A stretch of 64,000 bases of DNA from an uncultured Lachnospiraceae bacterium (GTDB taxonomy: Bacteria > Bacillota > Clostridia > Lachnospirales > Lachnospiraceae): assembly GCA_910584325.1 (NCBI GenBank), contig CAJTZH010000001.1, positions 12,328-76,327 of the forward strand. Direction: 5' to 3'. Made by a program: the position numbers and the translations under genes. A model generated the notes under the pieces. That model had not been told where the DNA came from. It was given only the letters and a program-made list of their open reading frames with translations, and ran no database searches. Shown here in pieces: positions 2,489 to 32,667 of the stretch; positions within the stretch are counted from its first letter, which is position 1; each line of letters opens with the position of its first letter.

Positions 2489-2664
2489 ACCTCTTCTCCT
2501 GTTATAAAACCTTCCCGCACCAAAAATGTATGATTATTTTTATTGTAACATATATTTTTTGAAATAACAAGAAGCGTCCCCTTACTTTTGGGAAAATGAT
2601 TTTATTGAAAGCCCTTTAAAAAAACGGTATAATGACTTTATCAAATACGATTGAGGTGAATACT

Positions 2665-4101
2665 ATGAGCGCGCTGAAATTTTCTTACAAAAAACCGGAA
2701 GAAACAGGCATTGATTCCGTATGGATTACAAACTTTCTGGACCGTCTGGAACACTGCCATCTTCCGATGCACAGTTTCATTTTAATGAAGGATGATTCCA
2801 TTGTGGCGGAAACCTACTATGCTCCATATACAGCGGACACACAGCACCGTATGTTTTCCATCACCAAAAGTTTTGTATCCGTTGCCATAGGACTGCTTGC
2901 TAAGGAGGGCAGATTAACGCTTGACGATTTTATTATTTCCTACTTCCCTGAGAAACTGAACGATATAACGCCTTCCCCTTATCTGACGGAAATGACCATC
3001 CGTGATATGCTTACCATGACTTCCTGTCACGCAAAGACTACTTATAAGGCTCCCGGATGCACGGACTGGGTCGGCTCATTTTTTACCACAGCGCCGTCCC
3101 ATGCGCCGGGTACAACCTTTTCTTATGACACATCCGCCACGCATACGCTTTGTGCATTGGTTGAAAAACTCACCGGCATGAAACTGCTTGATTACATGCG
3201 CGCAAAATTTCTTGATGACATCGGTTTCTCCAAAGACGCTTATGTTATCGAGGCTCCCGGCGGCGAGAGTCTCGGCGGTTCCGGATTAATGTGTACGCCA
3301 ATGGATTTACTCCGTTTCATCTACGTCATCAGCAAAAACGGTTGTCTTGACGGCAAACAGATACTTCCCGAATCTTATATCAAAGCCGCTACAAGCAAAC
3401 AGTCCGATACGTACGGAAAAAGCGCCACCTGGGAAGAAATGCAGGGTTACGGCTACCAGTTCTGGATGACTTCGCACAGCGGATACGCCTGCTACGGAAT
3501 GGGCGGACAGTACGCGTTAGTTTATCCGGAAAAGAACATTATTGTCGTCACCACCGCGGATACACAGGGACGCCAAGGCGGAACACAGCTGATTTACGAC
3601 GCGTTTTATCAGGAAATCTACGACAAAATCGGCGTGGAAATCGTTCCGGCAGTTCCGTCCTGCAATCTGGAACAGTATTTAAAGACCCGCTCGCTGTTCT
3701 ATGTGCAAGGCGGCAATACTTCACCGATTGTCGAAAGAATCAAAGGAGTCCGCTACGAAATGGACGTGAATCCAATGGGTTTTAAATGGGTTTCCCTGTC
3801 TGTTGACAAATATGACGGAACATTCGACTACGAAACGGACAAAGGCGTTTTTTCACTTCCGTTCAGCATCCAGTCGAATCAGGTTGTGGAATTTCCTCAC
3901 TACCGGTACAAGGCATGTACAAGCGGCGCTTTTCTGGACACGAATACATTTCTGATAAAAGCGCATATTATAGACGAATGTGTTGGAAATCTGTTTATTC
4001 AGCTTGTTTTTAAGGGAAATGACGTAACTGTCATGATGCGCAAATTTGAAGAAACTATGTTTACGGAATTTGATGGTTTTATATGCGGGCACCGCTCATA
4101 G
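2665..4101 (+). CDS. Serine hydrolase, beta-lactamase/PBP-related family
   Basis: SxxK motif in FSITKSF near the N-terminus, with an extra C-terminal domain. Start moved to ATG 2665, preceded by GAGGTGA; the ORF-track start is 2632. Confidence 0.8.
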   Translation: MSALKFSYKKPEETGIDSVWITNFLDRLEHCHLPMHSFILMKDDSIVAETYYAPYTADTQHRMFSITKSFVSVAIGLLAKEGRLTLDDFIISYFPEKLNDITPSPYLTEMTIRDMLTMTSCHAKTTYKAPGCTDWVGSFFTTAPSHAPGTTFSYDTSATHTLCALVEKLTGMKLLDYMRAKFLDDIGFSKDAYVIEAPGGESLGGSGLMCTPMDLLRFIYVISKNGCLDGKQILPESYIKAATSKQSDTYGKSATWEEMQGYGYQFWMTSHSGYACYGMGGQYALVYPEKNIIVVTTADTQGRQGGTQLIYDAFYQEIYDKIGVEIVPAVPSCNLEQYLKTRSLFYVQGGNTSPIVERIKGVRYEMDVNPMGFKWVSLSVDKYDGTFDYETDKGVFSLPFSIQSNQVVEFPHYRYKACTSGAFLDTNTFLIKAHIIDECVGNLFIQLVFKGNDVTVMMRKFEETMFTEFDGFICGHRS

Positions 4102-27080: not shown

Positions 27081-27535
27081 TTTTTAATAATTGGCGCTTT
27101 ATTCTTCTTATTTTTCTCTTCATAATAATCGTAAATATTAACAAATGGCAAAACTATTTTCCCACTCGCAAACATCGTAGCTGAAATATTTTCTATTTTT
27201 GCACGTGCAACGGAAAATAATGCCGCCGCTCCGTTAATCAAAACCAATTCTTTAAACTTTTGTTCATCTACTGATAGCGGTGATGAAAATGCTCCTTCCA
27301 AAGTCATATCAATAGAACAAACCTTTTTATCATTTTGCTCCAGTTCAATCAGTATCTTTAATAACAGCTTTCCTGTCCAGGTTTTTTCCTCAGCTGTCAG
27401 CTCCGAAAAGATAATGTCCATACCAAATTTTCTGATTAAATCTTCAGGCACCATCGAAAGCTTATTATCTACATTTAATTCTAAAATGGCTGAACCCAGA
27501 AATAAAAAATCCGGTACGATACAATTAAACTTCAT
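27077..27535 (-). CDS. SecB-like chaperone (candidate TAC-system chaperone)
   Basis: 152 aa from ATG 27535. LLLKILIELEQNDKKVCSIDMTLEGAFSS...LVLINGAAALFSVARAKIENISATMFASGKIVLPFVNIYDYY parallels the E. coli SecB core (VVLRVTV...GGIFSI...[36 protein letters not shown]). The start overlaps the XRE gene stop (TAATG). Confidence 0.7.
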   Translation of the reverse strand: MKFNCIVPDFLFLGSAILELNVDNKLSMVPEDLIRKFGMDIIFSELTAEEKTWTGKLLLKILIELEQNDKKVCSIDMTLEGAFSSPLSVDEQKFKELVLINGAAALFSVARAKIENISATMFASGKIVLPFVNIYDYYEEKNKKNKAPIIKN

Positions 27536-27969
27536 TATGCAATCCCCTCCATCTGCTTTGACCACACCGTAATATCGCCATATCCCGACACTGTATGTTT
27601 TCGGTCACTAAATGACGTTTCAATAACTTTATATTCATCTCTCAGGCAGTAACTTTTATCACGTATGACCGGTTCAAATTCCATGTCTAATTTATCACAT
27701 ATTTCTTTGAGGGTTGTAACTGTAAAATTATACTCTCCGCTTTCCCACCTGGAAACCATTCCCTGAGAAACATTCATCATCTTTGCAAATTCTTTTTGAT
27801 TCATTCCCATTTCATTACGTTTCATTTCTATTTTAGCCGCTATAATTGCCAACGCTCTAATGCTTTTTATCTCCGACTCTGTTAACTTTCCAGTAAGCCA
27901 GTTTGTCGTTCCTGCTTCTTTTATTTTCTCCTCAAGCATTATCTTTCTCTCCTTCCTATTCTCAACCAT
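27535..27969 (-). CDS. XRE-family HTH antitoxin (HigA-like) with a C-terminal extension
   Basis: 144 aa. HTH MNQKEFAKMMNVSQGMVSRWESGEYNFTVTTLKEICDKL plus a tail of about 40 aa. The ATG overlaps the stop of the upstream toxin frame (GATGGTTGA). Confidence 0.8.
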   Translation of the reverse strand: MVENRKERKIMLEEKIKEAGTTNWLTGKLTESEIKSIRALAIIAAKIEMKRNEMGMNQKEFAKMMNVSQGMVSRWESGEYNFTVTTLKEICDKLDMEFEPVIRDKSYCLRDEYKVIETSFSDRKHTVSGYGDITVWSKQMEGIA

Positions 27970-28345
27970 CCAGAATCCTTAATCTATTTAATGCCAATTT
28001 AACGTTTCTGGCGTAATCCTTCTTTGATTTTTCCTTAAATGCAGCCAATAATAAGATTTTTCCCTCTTACAAGTAAATATACAGTACTCTTGGATTCAGT
28101 TTACTTTTAGAATAACGGATACTGAATAATTTAGGAGTGATATTCTCCAATTGCTCAAAATTTTGCAGCTTAATTGCTTCCTCCCCATACTCCTCCAATA
28201 TTTCCAAAGACCTAATCAGCCATTTCTGATAACGTGGAAATGGTGGACTAAAACTGAATTTCTCTTTAGTCATACTGTAAAATTCTTTTTGAAAGCAATC
28301 AACTTCGTACACTTTCGAAAACATCTCGTTCCGAACTATGTTCAA
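27962..28345 (-). pseudogene. RelE/ParE-superfamily (Gp49/HigB-like) toxin interrupted by an in-frame TAA
   Basis: The ORF-track product ends ...KLFSIRYSKSKLNPRVLYIYL at TAA 28067-28069. The same frame continues EGKILLLAAFKEKSKKDYARNVKLALNRLRILDG to TGA 27962-27964. Together these give a typical toxin-length protein of about 127 codons. Confidence 0.65.
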
Positions 28346-29608: not shown

Positions 29609-29637
29609 TTGCTTTTCGAACATATGTTTGCTATTAT
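29609..29637 (+). promoter_or_regulatory. Promoter P1 with a LexA (SOS/Cheo) box in the spacer
   Basis: TTGCTT (-35), a 17-nt spacer, TATTAT (-10). The spacer holds CGAACATATGTTTG (29617-29630), 13/14 to the Firmicute LexA palindrome CGAACATATGTTCG. Confidence 0.7.
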
Positions 29638-29693
29638 TATTTTACGAAATCAACACCTATACTATCTACTATAAAACAGGGAGGGGTGATACT

Positions 29694-29861
29694 ATGGACA
29701 AACAAATTACAAGATGTCCATTATGCGGCAAACGCGCCTGCGATATTAAGGTTGAGAGCGAGACTGATAATCTGGATTTTTATGTTGAGTTAAAATGTCC
29801 CAACTGTAAAAACATTGTCAAGATTCAATACTCCCGCTGTATTTCATCCATCGCAAACTAA
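29694..29861 (+). CDS. Small zinc-ribbon protein, Com-like (two CxxC pairs)
   Basis: 55 aa from ATG 29694 after GGGAGGGG: MDKQITRCPLCGKRACDIKVESETDNLDFYVELKCPNCKNIVKIQYSRCISSIAN. The CPLC...CPNC architecture and length resemble phage Mu Com-type zinc fingers. Confidence 0.6.
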   Translation: MDKQITRCPLCGKRACDIKVESETDNLDFYVELKCPNCKNIVKIQYSRCISSIAN

Positions 29862-29942
29862 GCGGACGTGCATATAACATAAGGAAGCTTCGGCTCGATT
29901 TTTCTATATAAAAAACTATTTAAAATTTTTTTAAAAAAGGTG

Positions 29943-29971
29943 TTGACATTCGAACATATGTTTGTTATATT
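29943..29971 (+). promoter_or_regulatory. Promoter P2 with a LexA (SOS/Cheo) box in the spacer
   Basis: TTGACA (-35), a 17-nt spacer, TATATT (-10). The spacer holds the same CGAACATATGTTTG (29951-29964). The 16-nt TTCGAACATATGTTTG is identical to P1. Confidence 0.75.
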
Positions 29972-30084
29972 ATAAACATGAAATTTCACTTTGACATATC
30001 GATATGTTACTTTTGGACATTGAATGAATTGAACAATCATTATACAGAACGCTATCCAGCAACGGGTCTTATAAGACACCAAAT

Positions 30085-30139
30085 GGCGGAAGCAGGACAA
30101 TTCTCTACAGAATTTTCCATGCTTCCGCCTTTTCTGTTT
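30085..30139 (+). terminator. Strong intrinsic terminator inside the leader between P2 and the first large CDS (candidate attenuator)
   Basis: GGCGGAAGCAGGACAATTCT-CTAC-AGAATTTTCCATGCTTCCGCC (about 19 bp with two small bulges) followed by TTTTCTGTTTG. Confidence 0.75.
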
Positions 30140-30212
30140 GTCTGACATTCATTCAATTTCCTACCAACAATCAACAAACAAAAAATTATAAAAAGTAAAG
30201 GAGAACAAAACT

Positions 30213-30836
30213 ATGAACAATTACGAATTAGAAATTCAATTTACAGAGGACGCCTTAAAGGCAATTTACGCAGCAGGAGAAAAGATTATCATTACAAAGG
30301 AAGTTGCCGGAAGTAAGGGTAAGAGCGTATGTTGGGTTTCCACCCTTCCGTTCCTCAACAACTCCGTGAAATGGACCGAAGAATACATGCTCTACGCATC
30401 AAGGGAAGAGGCTATGAACGGCGCAACCATCAGCAAATTATCAGACGTGGACGCCATCTCGGAGGTTATTTACGACTTTGATAACGCCATCTTTGATAAT
30501 GCGCACACTTCTTCCGATGTCGGCAAAAACGAATACGGTCTGTCAAACCAGATGGACCAGTACAGCTACCTGACATTCGGCCTTGCCCAGAAGGTAACCG
30601 TAAACGGAGCTCGTACGGAAGGCAGACCAATCAACGCTGTTACGCTTCCATACAATCATACCGCAACATTCTCACCGATTGAAAAGGTGCGTGTATGTCT
30701 CGCAAATGACTTAAATAACGGCATGGTTATTACAAAGGAATTCAGCACTGCCATTGATGTTACTTACAGCGGCACGGAAACAAAGAAGACCATTGCGTAC
30801 GACAACACAAAAGGCATGTTTGTACCAATAGGCTAA
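30213..30836 (+). CDS. Hypothetical protein, 207 aa, no recognisable family
   Basis: Good SD (AAAGGAG, 9 nt, ATG). Hydrophilic and beta-rich-looking, with no signal peptide or TM. First CDS downstream of P2 and the leader. Confidence 0.65.
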   Translation: MNNYELEIQFTEDALKAIYAAGEKIIITKEVAGSKGKSVCWVSTLPFLNNSVKWTEEYMLYASREEAMNGATISKLSDVDAISEVIYDFDNAIFDNAHTSSDVGKNEYGLSNQMDQYSYLTFGLAQKVTVNGARTEGRPINAVTLPYNHTATFSPIEKVRVCLANDLNNGMVITKEFSTAIDVTYSGTETKKTIAYDNTKGMFVPIG

Positions 30837-30906
30837 GCCGCAGATATTTTCACAAATTATAAAAAGAAAGGAGGTGAATGCTGTACTTCGTACAGTACAG
30901 CGGCAT

Positions 30907-31164
30907 ATGAATTTTGACATTTTAGATACAGACCAAAATCTGATTCAGCTTAGATGCAATAATATCATTTATATGGGTAATATCGCCGGGAATAACAGAA
31001 GCTGGTATAAGCTCACCGGTAATGTTACGCAGAATGACCAAGCAGTCGTCCGGGCCATATATCAGCCTGCTTCATGGAGAGCCGGTACCCATCCGTTTAA
31101 TCCGGTTATCTCTGTAGATGTAAACCCGTTAGCAAACGGCGACGTTGATGTCTATATTGATTAA
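30907..31164 (+). CDS. Hypothetical protein, about 85 aa, no recognisable family (start uncertain)
   Basis: The frame is open from GTG 30874, which lies inside the SD; the first ATG is at 30907. No TM or signal peptide. The frame ends 32 nt before the GH25 start. Confidence 0.5.
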   Translation: MNFDILDTDQNLIQLRCNNIIYMGNIAGNNRSWYKLTGNVTQNDQAVVRAIYQPASWRAGTHPFNPVISVDVNPLANGDVDVYID

Positions 31165-31195
31165 TCGTTTCATTTTGAATGCGGGGGAGATAAAC

Positions 31196-31810
31196 ATGAG
31201 CAAAATAGGAATTGATGTTTCTTCATATCAGGGAAAAATTGATTGGGCAAAAGTAAAAGACAATGGAATCGAATTTGCAATTATCAAGATTATCCGAAAA
31301 GACTTATATCCGGATAATCAATTTGAAACCAATTGGAAAGGATGTAACGATTGCGGAATCACCATTCAGGGCGTATACAATTATAGTTATGCGGACTCGG
31401 TACAAAAGGCCGAAAATGACGCGAAAGAAGTGATTAAGATTCTGAATGGCAGGAAAGCAATGGTGTGGTTCGATTCGGAAGACGACTGTCAAAAAAATCT
31501 TGGTCCGAAACTGATATCCATTATCAATGCGTATGCAGCCGTTATTCTAAATGCAGGATTGCAGTTTGGCGTATACAGCGGAGAATGGTTTTACAAAACG
31601 TATATTCAATCCCAGGGCAGCCTGAATTACCCGGTATGGATTGCAAATTACGGAAATAACACCGGTAAATTAGAACCCGTGCATGAACCAGAAATTGCCG
31701 GAATGGTCGGATGGCAATACACTTCGATGGGAAAAGTAAATGGAATATCCGGAACTGTTGATATGAATATCTGGTATGATGATATACAAAACAGGAATCC
31801 TCAAAAATAA
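31196..31810 (+). CDS. GH25 muramidase (lysozyme), catalytic domain only
   Basis: MSKIGIDVSSYQGKIDWAKVKDNGIEFAIIKI...GVYNYSYA...WIANYG...GWQYTS is a GH25 signature. Start at ATG 31196 after GGGGGAG. No signal peptide and no cell-wall-binding module. Confidence 0.85.
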   Translation: MSKIGIDVSSYQGKIDWAKVKDNGIEFAIIKIIRKDLYPDNQFETNWKGCNDCGITIQGVYNYSYADSVQKAENDAKEVIKILNGRKAMVWFDSEDDCQKNLGPKLISIINAYAAVILNAGLQFGVYSGEWFYKTYIQSQGSLNYPVWIANYGNNTGKLEPVHEPEIAGMVGWQYTSMGKVNGISGTVDMNIWYDDIQNRNPQK

Positions 31811-31850
31811 CCGTTCATCCTGATTTTATGCAACATCAAAAAACAATTCA

Positions 31851-31883
31851 CGGGGTGCCGCAAAATTTATCTGCGGCACCCCG
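31851..31883. terminator. Bidirectional terminator closing the plus-strand island
   Basis: CGGGGTGCCGCA-AAATTTATC-TGCGGCACCCCG, a 12-bp GC-rich stem between convergent genes. Confidence 0.75.
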
Positions 31884-31891
31884 TAGTCTTA

Positions 31892-32667
31892 TTACACTAT
31901 TACTGTCCGTTTTCTATGCCTGAGTTTTTCAATCGGATACTCCACGATAAAATGACTTACCGTGGCGCACAAAATTGACAATACAATAAAAATAAGCCAT
32001 TCTCTAAAATTACCCGGCTGATGGCCGATTACATTCTGTATCACTGTTTTAACGGTAAAATGGCACAAATAAATGCCATAACTAATACTTCCCAGAAAAC
32101 TGTCAATTTTTCCTCTCTCAAAAGATTTCAAAAAATATATCAGAGGAAGTCCTAATACCACTCCCAAAAGTATCTCTTTGCTCTGCCCGTTAATTAATTT
32201 CCCGGTTGAACCCATATACAAAAACAACAAAAAGATTACAGAATACATGCCATAAAGAATCCTTTTTCCTTTACTCCATCTTTATACAGGTAAATTCCCA
32301 TAATAAAAATCCATAGCATTCCCAGCAGTAAGCCATACCCCCATACAGGACTTAAGTTTCCCCTTAATGTCAGGACATACAGTAAAAGCGAAACCGTAAA
32401 TAATAAAATATTGATATAGTTTTTCTTTTCCCGAAAAACGTGTAAAAAAGGAGCCGCGATATAATATGTCAGCTGCACGCCCATTGTCCATGCCGCCGGT
32501 ATTACTCTGCATGCATCCATTGCGGTTTGCAAACCGGTTGACAAAAATGTAAAATTCAAAGGCAGGAGCATCAAATTCAGCACAGTGCCCTGATTAACTC
32601 CCCAATAAAAAATCCCACTATGTGATAGCGCAACCATTATAGATAATACGAATCTGTATATTCCCAT
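31892..32667 (-). pseudogene. Acyltransferase-3 (OafA-like) family gene, frameshifted and shortened
   Basis: Two overlapping ORFs in different frames (32236-32667 and 31892-32248). The first has AAWTMGVQLTYYIAAPFL; the second has LGSISYGIYLCHF, a C-terminal acyltransferase-3 motif. Combined length is about 260 aa against a typical 330-380. Confidence 0.6.

Follow-up and report, generated by a model that had tools for sequence, protein, structure and literature searches.

What switches on a short run of plus-strand genes embedded in a neighbourhood that is otherwise read from the minus strand, and what might these genes do for the cell? The question is raised by a 64,000-nt stretch of DNA, here called the window, from an uncultured Lachnospiraceae bacterium (GCA_910584325.1, contig CAJTZH010000001.1, positions 12,328-76,327, forward strand). 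It contains a cassette of four genes, for a zinc-ribbon protein, a 207-amino-acid (aa) all-beta protein, an 85-aa partner and a GH25 muramidase, and the first and the second of these are preceded by promoters that carry the same palindromic box. On balance we lean, with some reserve, towards reading the cassette as a chromosomal, non-phage accessory operon in the SOS regulon, with a structured leader as a probable second control and damage-dependent wall hydrolysis as a possible output in this species.

The control region is built around the 16-mer TTCGAACATATGTTTG, of which exact copies occur at 29615-29630 and 29949-29964 and nowhere else in the 64 kb. Each copy sits at a promoter:

29609-29637, plus strand: promoter P1, with -35 hexamer TTGCTT (29609-29614), a 17-nt spacer, -10 hexamer TATTAT (29632-29637) and the box CGAACATATGTTTG (29617-29630)

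29943-29971, plus strand: promoter P2, with -35 hexamer TTGACA (29943-29948), a 17-nt spacer, -10 hexamer TATATT (29966-29971) and the box CGAACATATGTTTG (29951-29964)

Both boxes lie inside the 17-nt spacers of these sigma-A-type promoters, so that operator and promoter overlap, and the coordinates and hexamers of the original prediction, which had described two good sigma-A promoters, were reproduced. P2 is the best sigma-70-type promoter match of the region (11/12, with a TG extension), and an A/T-rich, UP-like tract lies upstream of it.

Are these boxes LexA operators? As had been proposed from the sequence, CGAACATATGTTTG fits the Bacillus subtilis-type operator CGAAC-N4-GTTCG at 13 of 14 positions, and its core matches the clostridial form GAAC-N4-GTTT exactly, which is the form of the LexA boxes of lexA, recA and ruvC in Clostridioides difficile (PMC4234289). 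We compared the window with 14 related loci (L008, L009, L015, L024-L027 and L148-L154), giving 15 loci in all. The half-sites GAAC and GTTT are kept across them, and substitutions fall in N4 (ATAT, GTAT, ATGT) or at the C preceding GAAC. Each fetched locus with the zinc-ribbon gene also has a P1 box, which differs only in the N4 spacer. Of the 14 loci that still have P2, 13 show the GAAC-N4-GTTT core at the P2 position; in L151 it reads AGAAC. The sole broken half-site is CAAAC in L015, where the 207-aa gene downstream is a pseudogene.

The same word marks SOS genes elsewhere. Searching public metagenomes for exact copies of the 14-mer CGAACATATGTTTG returned at least 120 contigs, and the flanks were judged from 70 open reading frames (ORFs) of at least 100 aa beside intergenic copies. 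Among the matches listed, at least 7-8 of the 70 encode LexA, at least four are LysM proteins, at least two are Y-family polymerases (IMS), at least one is RecA and at least one is DNA polymerase III alpha (PF07733 and PHP). The B. subtilis protein YneA also has a LysM domain. The arrangement of -35, box and -10 seen in the window precedes other genes in several of the contigs, again among the matches listed. In a human gut contig (L089, 3942-4509) it stands ahead of a gene of the glyoxalase/bleomycin-resistance family, which is a probable SOS-controlled binder or detoxification gene, and an unrelated metagenome contig of small genes (L130, 1499-1840) has two exact copies of the 14-mer 328 nt apart. 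No such box was found elsewhere in ~250 kb of other fetched Lachnospiraceae DNA, where the boxes are confined to the cassette module.

The layout thus resembles Firmicute SOS (LexA/DinR) promoters with Cheo boxes, for example those of lexA, recA and uvrB in B. subtilis and C. difficile (PMC4234289), in having CGAAC-N4-GTTYG placed over the promoter and in its conserved half-sites, and the identical 14-mer serves metagenomic lexA and recA promoters among the matches listed. It differs in that the cassette genes are not repair, mutagenesis or division-inhibitor genes; no known SOS repair gene was recognised among them, as originally stated. It also differs in having two tandem operators on successive promoters, the second followed by a structured, attenuator-like leader. 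LexA very probably uses the boxes of P1 and P2 as operators and occludes both promoters from them, and we regard LexA control of the cassette as likely. LexA is accordingly predicted to bind at both sites, with induction of P1 and P2 by DNA damage.

Between P2 and the 207-aa gene lies a leader, overlooked in the original prediction, with the following parts:

29978-30212, plus strand: 5' leader of the P2 transcript, ~235 nt, with a single-sequence fold of z = -6.3 versus shuffles

29979-29988 and 29994-30007, plus strand: palindromes TGAAATTTCA and ACATATCGATATGT, both perfect and invariant or nearly so across related loci

~30005-30019 and ~30147-30161, plus strand: arm A and arm B, which pair with each other

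30051-30086, plus strand: conserved core, GCTATCCAGCAACGGGTC..AAGACACCAAATGG

30085-30129, plus strand: long, G+C-rich, terminator-like hairpin, followed by a T-tract at 30130-30139

An alignment of ten distinct leader sequences shows three blocks whose conservation exceeds that of the coding sequence, namely the first 30 nt, the core GCTATCCAGCAAYGGGTC..AAGACACCAAATGGCGGAAGC, and the hairpin with its T-tract, and the upper stem of the hairpin covaries. Arm A, 5' of the core, and arm B, 3' of the T-tract, are both variable, yet they pair in all ten distinct loci despite their differing sequences. The resulting helix has 14-31 base pairs between arms that lie 85-102 nt apart, and in eight of the ten loci it is matched by only 0-4 of 300 shuffles (by 8 in L008 and by 24 in L009). 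No conserved promoter was found between the hairpin and the 207-aa gene in the compared loci. We read the leader as a cis-regulatory, attenuator-like RNA that would attenuate P2 transcripts and whose closing helix would form only on read-through. The palindromes TGAAATTTCA and ACATATCGATATGT might form a hairpin that stabilises the 5' end, or might serve additional regulators as operators. Two other descriptions of the leader were rejected: as coding sequence, since the ORF from the transcription start changes frame and length among loci and no ORF is conserved, and as a known RNA family, since Rfam 15 gave nothing at gathering score (best E = 0.42, sroB).

Is the cassette a unit? It consists of the following genes:

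29694-29861, plus strand: gene for a 55-aa CxxC...CxxC zinc ribbon, with the Shine-Dalgarno (SD) sequence GGGAGGGG upstream

30213-30836, plus strand: gene for the 207-aa all-beta protein, the constant gene of the module

30910-31164, plus strand: gene for the 85-aa partner, with ATG at 30910 (mechanical ORF start, GTG at 30874)

31196-31810, plus strand: gene for the GH25 muramidase, catalytic domain only, 204 aa

Within the window species the order zinc ribbon, 207 aa, 85 aa and GH25 recurs in at least six fetched contigs; those with a 96% identical zinc ribbon or a 99% identical 85-aa protein carry all four genes in this order, and these same-species cassettes sit between mannose-nucleotide genes on one side and an intact acyltransferase gene and an M6 peptidase gene on the other. 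Sister lineages, whose 207-aa proteins are 77-92% identical, keep P2, its box and the leader, and the rest varies. L008 and L027 have the zinc ribbon, the 207-aa and the 85-aa gene; L025 and L026 have the zinc ribbon and the 207-aa gene; L024 and L015 have the 207-aa and 85-aa genes and lack P1 and the zinc ribbon; and in L009 the zinc ribbon and the 207-aa gene are followed by a gene for a 576-aa adenosine-deaminase-like protein. What stays constant is therefore P2 with its LexA box, followed by the leader and the 207-aa gene; the slot downstream varies, and the lysozyme gene occupies it in the window species only. Whether all four genes travel together with the twin boxes was a check proposed at the outset; they do so within the species, but not beyond it, where boxes and 207-aa gene occur without GH25. 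In one locus of the window species (L153, 6168-11800) an inovirus-like element (Zot, G2P-type Rep, rve integrase) directly follows the zinc-ribbon gene. It lies at the A/T-rich tract just upstream of P2, and on the stretch that was fetched it takes the place of both P2 and the 207-aa gene.

The proteins themselves were examined one by one. Homologues of the zinc ribbon occur in this clade only, and always beside the 207-aa gene or its P2. It had been called 'Com-like', a label that we could not uphold: Pfam, NCBIfam and PHROGs gave no match to a Com model and only generic zinc-ribbon, Lar and Cys_rich_KTR matches, all below cut-offs. Like Com of phage Mu, it is a small zinc ribbon of the CxxC...CxxC type whose gene immediately precedes one that it possibly controls, beside a structured leader RNA, but it lacks a profile match and the spacing of its cysteine pairs differs. 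RNA binding by the zinc ribbon is pure conjecture. The 85-aa protein is found only beside 207-aa genes of this clade (window, L008, L015, L024, L027 and L148-L154), and its AlphaFold2 (AF2) model is of low confidence, with a predicted local distance difference test score (pLDDT) of 55. Between the SD sequence (30867-30873) and the ATG of its gene there is a 21-nt insertion with the hairpin GCTGTAC-N8-GTACAGC (window 30874-30909), present in all four aligned loci of the window species and absent from the sister lineages; it may bring SD and ATG together, or may throttle translation of the 85-aa protein.

The fourth gene is, as first described, a muramidase reduced to its catalytic domain. The GH25 domain is full-length, with residues 6-184 matching positions 1-180 of the 180 of Pfam PF01183 at E = 3.5e-28, and its relatives of known structure include the GH25 lysins 2ww5 and 4kru. 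It has neither a cell-wall-binding domain nor, by inspection of the N-terminus, a signal peptide, and no holin gene lies next to it. A toxin or immunity protein was not recognisable in the cassette in Pfam, NCBIfam, PHROGs or PADLOC; GH25 is the lytic enzyme present.

From these elements the following course of events may be proposed. In an undamaged cell a LexA dimer would sit on each CGAACATATGTTTG box, and RNA polymerase would be excluded from P1 and P2 because each box fills the spacer between -35 and -10. Upon DNA damage RecA would be activated, LexA would cleave itself and both promoters would fire. P1 would give rise to the 55-aa zinc-ribbon protein, and P2 to the ~235-nt leader, in which the core, the GC-rich hairpin and the U-tract would stop most transcripts after ~160 nt. 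Only transcripts that read through would form the helix of arms A and B and reach the coding genes, so that expression of the cargo would probably need a second signal besides LexA cleavage, for which the co-induced zinc-ribbon protein is a candidate. The cargo would consist of the cytoplasmic 207-aa beta-sandwich and its 85-aa partner, joined in the window species only by the signal-less GH25 muramidase, which would fill the slot held in relatives by other signal-less degradative enzymes (deaminase-like, DUF6765 and matrixin). In the window species the output would then be wall hydrolysis in badly damaged cells, which would release their contents including the 207-aa and 85-aa proteins; the cytoplasmic muramidase would reach the wall once the membrane fails, or by some export. 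Such a lysis or release output is possible and gains a little indirect support from the signal-less degradative enzymes that habitually follow members of the 207-aa family, but we put it forward with more doubt than confidence.

There is a well-studied class of systems with which this scheme may be compared. Colicin operons are LexA-controlled, and Clostridium perfringens has the UV-inducible BCN5 with UviA/UviB. Pyocin clusters with the Lys endolysin are linked to explosive lysis (PMC4834629). As in these SOS bacteriocin and lysis operons, damage would derepress a unit with a lytic function, and a sacrificed subpopulation would release cytoplasmic cargo. On the other hand, the cassette has no recognisable toxin, immunity, holin or lysis-lipoprotein gene, its lysozyme is absent from sister lineages, and its cargo family is uncharacterised.

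Several observations weigh against the operon as we read it. The number of LexA-like sites is not above chance: the window has two sites with at most one mismatch to CGAAC-N4-GTTCG, namely the boxes of P1 and P2, versus 1.27 expected, and 32% of shuffles reach two; the significance of the boxes lies in their identity, position and conservation and not in their number. A simple terminator scan did not call the leader hairpin. The GH25 gene is missing from the six sister loci L008, L009, L015, L024, L025 and L027, which keep the boxes and the 207-aa gene, and from L026 as well; this excludes lysis as the core function that the lineages share. Neither a holin nor an export signal turned up at the cassette, which leaves the cytoplasmic muramidase with no evident way to the wall. 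No biochemical function is demonstrable for the 207-aa and 85-aa proteins, and the whole reading is computational. Lastly, arms A and B fold about equally well on either strand, as judged from G-U versus A-C pairs, and for this reason a DNA-level role of the arms is in play.

Could the arms then belong to an invertible terminator? In the cwpV-type switch of C. difficile an invertible segment lies between promoter and ORF, and a terminator is formed in one of the two orientations. The window resembles it in the succession of a promoter, imperfect inverted repeats around ~85-100 bp with a terminator-like hairpin, and a gene. However, the arm sequences change from one close relative to the next around an interior that is highly conserved, which is the signature of an RNA helix and not of recombinase sites. 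A recombinase was not found beside the cassette, nor a reversed orientation among the 15 loci. A cwpV-like role of the arms is disfavoured because they vary around a conserved interior, are seen in one orientation in 15 of 15 loci and have no recombinase nearby; upstream of distant members of the 207-aa family, in contrast, there are true invertible promoters, whose repeats are conserved.

What is this family? The 207-aa protein had been described, like the 85-aa protein, as belonging to no recognisable family. This stands insofar as neither has a match in PHROGs or PADLOC and the 207-aa protein has no fold match, but the 207-aa protein is no orphan. Its close homologues number 67, every one of them from a Lachnospiraceae-type source, and by profile (E <= 1e-3) the family extends to 978 clusters at 50% identity. 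The AF2 model is a confident all-beta structure (pLDDT 93.3), for which Foldseek found no fold match in PDB and BFVD (best E ~0.02, template modelling score <= 0.2); a sequence profile search of PDB found nothing, and Pfam (local copy), NCBIfam, PHROG and PADLOC gave no match. The structure and profile check proposed at the outset separates a confident, unmatched fold from the poorly modelled 85-aa protein. Members of the family are typically followed by a gene for an enzyme-like protein without signal peptide, by inspection of the N-termini; partners include DUF6765 proteins with a weak zinc-phospholipase-C match, adenosine-deaminase-like proteins, matrixin-type peptidases and a protein with the Stv adhesin domain, and one family member is fused to RTX repeats. 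A tblastn search of plasmids with two family members returned only a Rhizobium rhizoryzae plasmid and an Alicyclobacillus plasmid. In L005 (3917-8155) the pair of a 206-aa family member and a DUF6765 protein is duplicated in tandem, followed by a RecU gene and a urease operon.

Control also differs from locus to locus. Upstream of distant homologues (50-60% identity) there are inverted repeats of 21-26 nt with the core TAATACAATATTA, 118-123 nt apart:

L001 5755-5923: inverted-repeat site upstream of a distant 207-aa homologue

L005 3674-3845: the same

L010 2115-2274: the same

L016 5765-5935: the same

L020 5765-5926: the same

The segment between the repeats contains a TTGACA -35 hexamer, the -10 lies in the repeat, and in every assembly examined the promoter is aimed away from the gene. 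A 275-277-aa gene adjoins the repeats in L001, L018 and L020, and those of L001 and L018 encode a tyrosine recombinase by Pfam. The five sites look like a phase-variable invertible promoter in the OFF state. Other loci of the family have pairs of sigma-70 region 4 and HTH_16 genes, or a LuxR-type response regulator.

Other explanations may be offered for the control and for the origin of the cassette. The palindrome could be the operator of a repressor other than LexA, its likeness to a Cheo box being a coincidence. The chance-level number of LexA-like sites would fit this, as would the invariant palindromes TGAAATTTCA and ACATATCGATATGT after P2, at which other DNA-binding proteins may act, and an XRE-family gene 2 kb from the boxes. 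Against it, the exact 14-mer is the autoregulatory site of lexA in many metagenomic contigs among the matches listed, the half-sites are fixed while the N4 spacer is free, and the boxes are kept in L008, which has no XRE neighbour; we consider this very unlikely. The cassette could also be a decayed prophage lysis module, with GH25 as an endolysin remnant and neighbours that are unrecognised phage genes. GH25 does fit PHROG endolysin families (E = 6e-38) and is 34-55% identical to gut phage endolysins. It is alone in this: the 207-aa and 85-aa proteins have no match in PHROGs, and the 207-aa protein has no tblastn match in 50,697 phage records, no relative in IMG/VR by protein profile and no fold in BFVD. 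The leader core gave only three chance matches in IMG/VR, inside a high-GC phage gene. As the original prediction had it, no integrase, holin or structural gene accompanies the cassette, in which there is no holin-like ORF and no PHROG match for the neighbours of GH25, and a recognisable prophage lysis module of which it might be the tail was sought in PHROGs, by tblastn against phages, in IMG/VR and in BFVD, and did not appear. Moreover, its G+C content is like that of the flanks, and it occupies the same chromosomal place, between the mannose-nucleotide genes and the M6 peptidase gene, in several lineages. Phage origin was rejected on the failure of the 207-aa gene in all phage searches, with GH25 alone endolysin-like, and the prophage explanation is largely refuted, with only the slightest chance left to it.

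Two further explanations accept the regulation and concern the function. The 207-aa protein might be an SOS-induced protective binder, a beta-sandwich like RhiA or PSMB that sequesters genotoxic or toxic dietary or xenobiotic compounds, with partner enzymes that modify them and GH25 as a passenger. Close homologues of the 207-aa protein have a weak precomputed match to PF27136 'RhiA', and PSMB1a, a 209-aa RhiA homologue described in 2026, binds solanidine (dissociation constant 0.1 uM) and salicylate and raises tolerance (PMC13490719). The glyoxalase-family gene of L089 is preceded by the identical LexA-box layout, and SOS-driven binder or detoxification genes therefore exist. RhiA of Rhizobium and PSMB of Pectobacterium (PMC13490719) are, like the 207-aa protein, ~207-209 aa long, all-beta, cytoplasmic and tightly regulated; however, the hosts here belong to the gut Firmicutes, LexA or invertible promoters take the place of quorum sensing, and the profiles do not reproduce the relation. 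A profile of 136 family representatives scores the authentic RhiA of pRL10 at -1.2 bits, and hhalign of the family with RhiA gives a probability of 0.05, so that the link, which was not reproduced, is a lead and not a membership. No ligand is known, and the partner enzymes (muramidase, matrixin, zinc-phospholipase-C-like) are unlike detoxification enzymes. We judge the binder unlikely. The module might instead serve in conflict, as an anti-phage or abortive-infection system or as a polymorphic toxin or bacteriocin, with the 207-aa protein as sensor, adaptor or carrier and a swappable killing enzyme behind it, silenced by LexA in the window and in other lineages by invertible promoters or dedicated sigma factors. 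Across the family the gene behind the constant one does indeed vary, encoding one or another signal-less hydrolytic enzyme. Regulation is tight and takes several forms (invertible promoters beside a tyrosine recombinase, sigma-70 region 4 with HTH_16, a LuxR-type regulator), the RTX fusion implies export, and some loci neighbour a Gp49 and HTH_3 pair, which we infer to be toxin-antitoxin-like, and an AAA-ATPase_like/PDDEXK_9 gene. Yet PADLOC has no match for any cassette protein, no immunity gene, secretion system or holin was identified, and in L010 the deaminase-like and DUF6765 genes occur together and not as alternatives. A conflict module is decidedly improbable. As a side observation, in Rhizobium johnstonii pRL10 (L155, 20683-21270) RefSeq labels RhiB, the product of the gene following rhiA, a 'tail fiber protein', and rhiABC likewise pairs a beta-rich first gene with an odd partner.

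A more far-reaching proposal goes beyond the SOS-controlled operon that we favour. The 207-aa beta-sandwich might define a widespread two-gene module, hitherto unrecognised and made up of a constant, non-enzymatic subunit and a swappable, signal-less degradative enzyme. Bacteria would silence it by high-stakes switches, which would be LexA with a novel attenuator RNA in the window and invertible promoters or dedicated sigma factors in other lineages. Such a module would found a class of its own among suicide, release or conflict systems, and the leader might represent a new class of cis-regulatory RNA in the SOS regulon. We regard this as a speculation that is rather unlikely to hold in full.

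The surroundings of the cassette are minus-strand genes, for phosphomannomutase, GDP-mannose and GDP-fucose synthesis and an M6 peptidase. If ORFs that are shorter than 100 aa or nested within larger genes are left aside, every ORF outside the cassette lies on the minus strand except 2632-4101, a beta-lactamase-family gene; with this definition, the statement that the cassette and a hydrolase gene at 2.7-4.1 kb are the sole plus-strand genes is correct. The G+C content of the cassette resembles that of its flanks and bears no mark of recent foreign origin. The cassette is closed by one further feature:

31849-31885, no strand assigned: G+C-rich hairpin with a 16-bp stem (10 G-C pairs), between the convergent GH25 and acyltransferase genes

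This had been taken for a strong bidirectional terminator. The hairpin is real, and with a T-run on the minus-strand side it is a clear minus-strand terminator; the plus-strand tail, TCTTATTACA, is weak, so that bidirectionality is only partly borne out. The acyltransferase-3 gene beyond it (window 31892-32667, minus strand) is split into two ORFs of 118 and 143 aa, and is intact, at 332 aa, in L149-L154; it is probably a frameshift or a pseudogene in the window genome. On the other side, an XRE-type helix-turn-helix gene (28067-28345, minus strand) is followed by a short ORF (27535-27969, minus strand), where L148-L150 and L152 have an intact pair of Gp49 and HTH_3 genes; the Gp49-like partner of the XRE-type gene looks truncated in the window.

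What would the cassette mean for these bacteria? An SOS box over a promoter is classical regulatory logic. What is new is the gene content, the combination of a tandem operator with an uncatalogued structured leader, and a constant gene from a large uncharacterised family that is placed behind different stringent switches. To our knowledge, the SOS regulons of gut Clostridia, and of Lachnospiraceae especially, are almost unexplored. If our reading is true, the cassette would be an SOS-controlled unit that is neither repair nor prophage, and it would tie DNA damage, whether from antibiotics or from genotoxic metabolites of diet or drugs, to a cell-wall hydrolase and to a protein family of ~1000 clusters. 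It would also offer a possible route to damage-induced lysis and to the release of DNA and antigens in the gut. Two aspects are tractable: the leader, conserved and structured, which seems to act as a gate on an SOS promoter, and a protein family that is wired alternately to LexA, to phase-variable promoters and to sigma factors. Even if its function should turn out to be mundane, the cassette would be a clean predicted member of the LexA regulon and usable as an SOS reporter in these bacteria.

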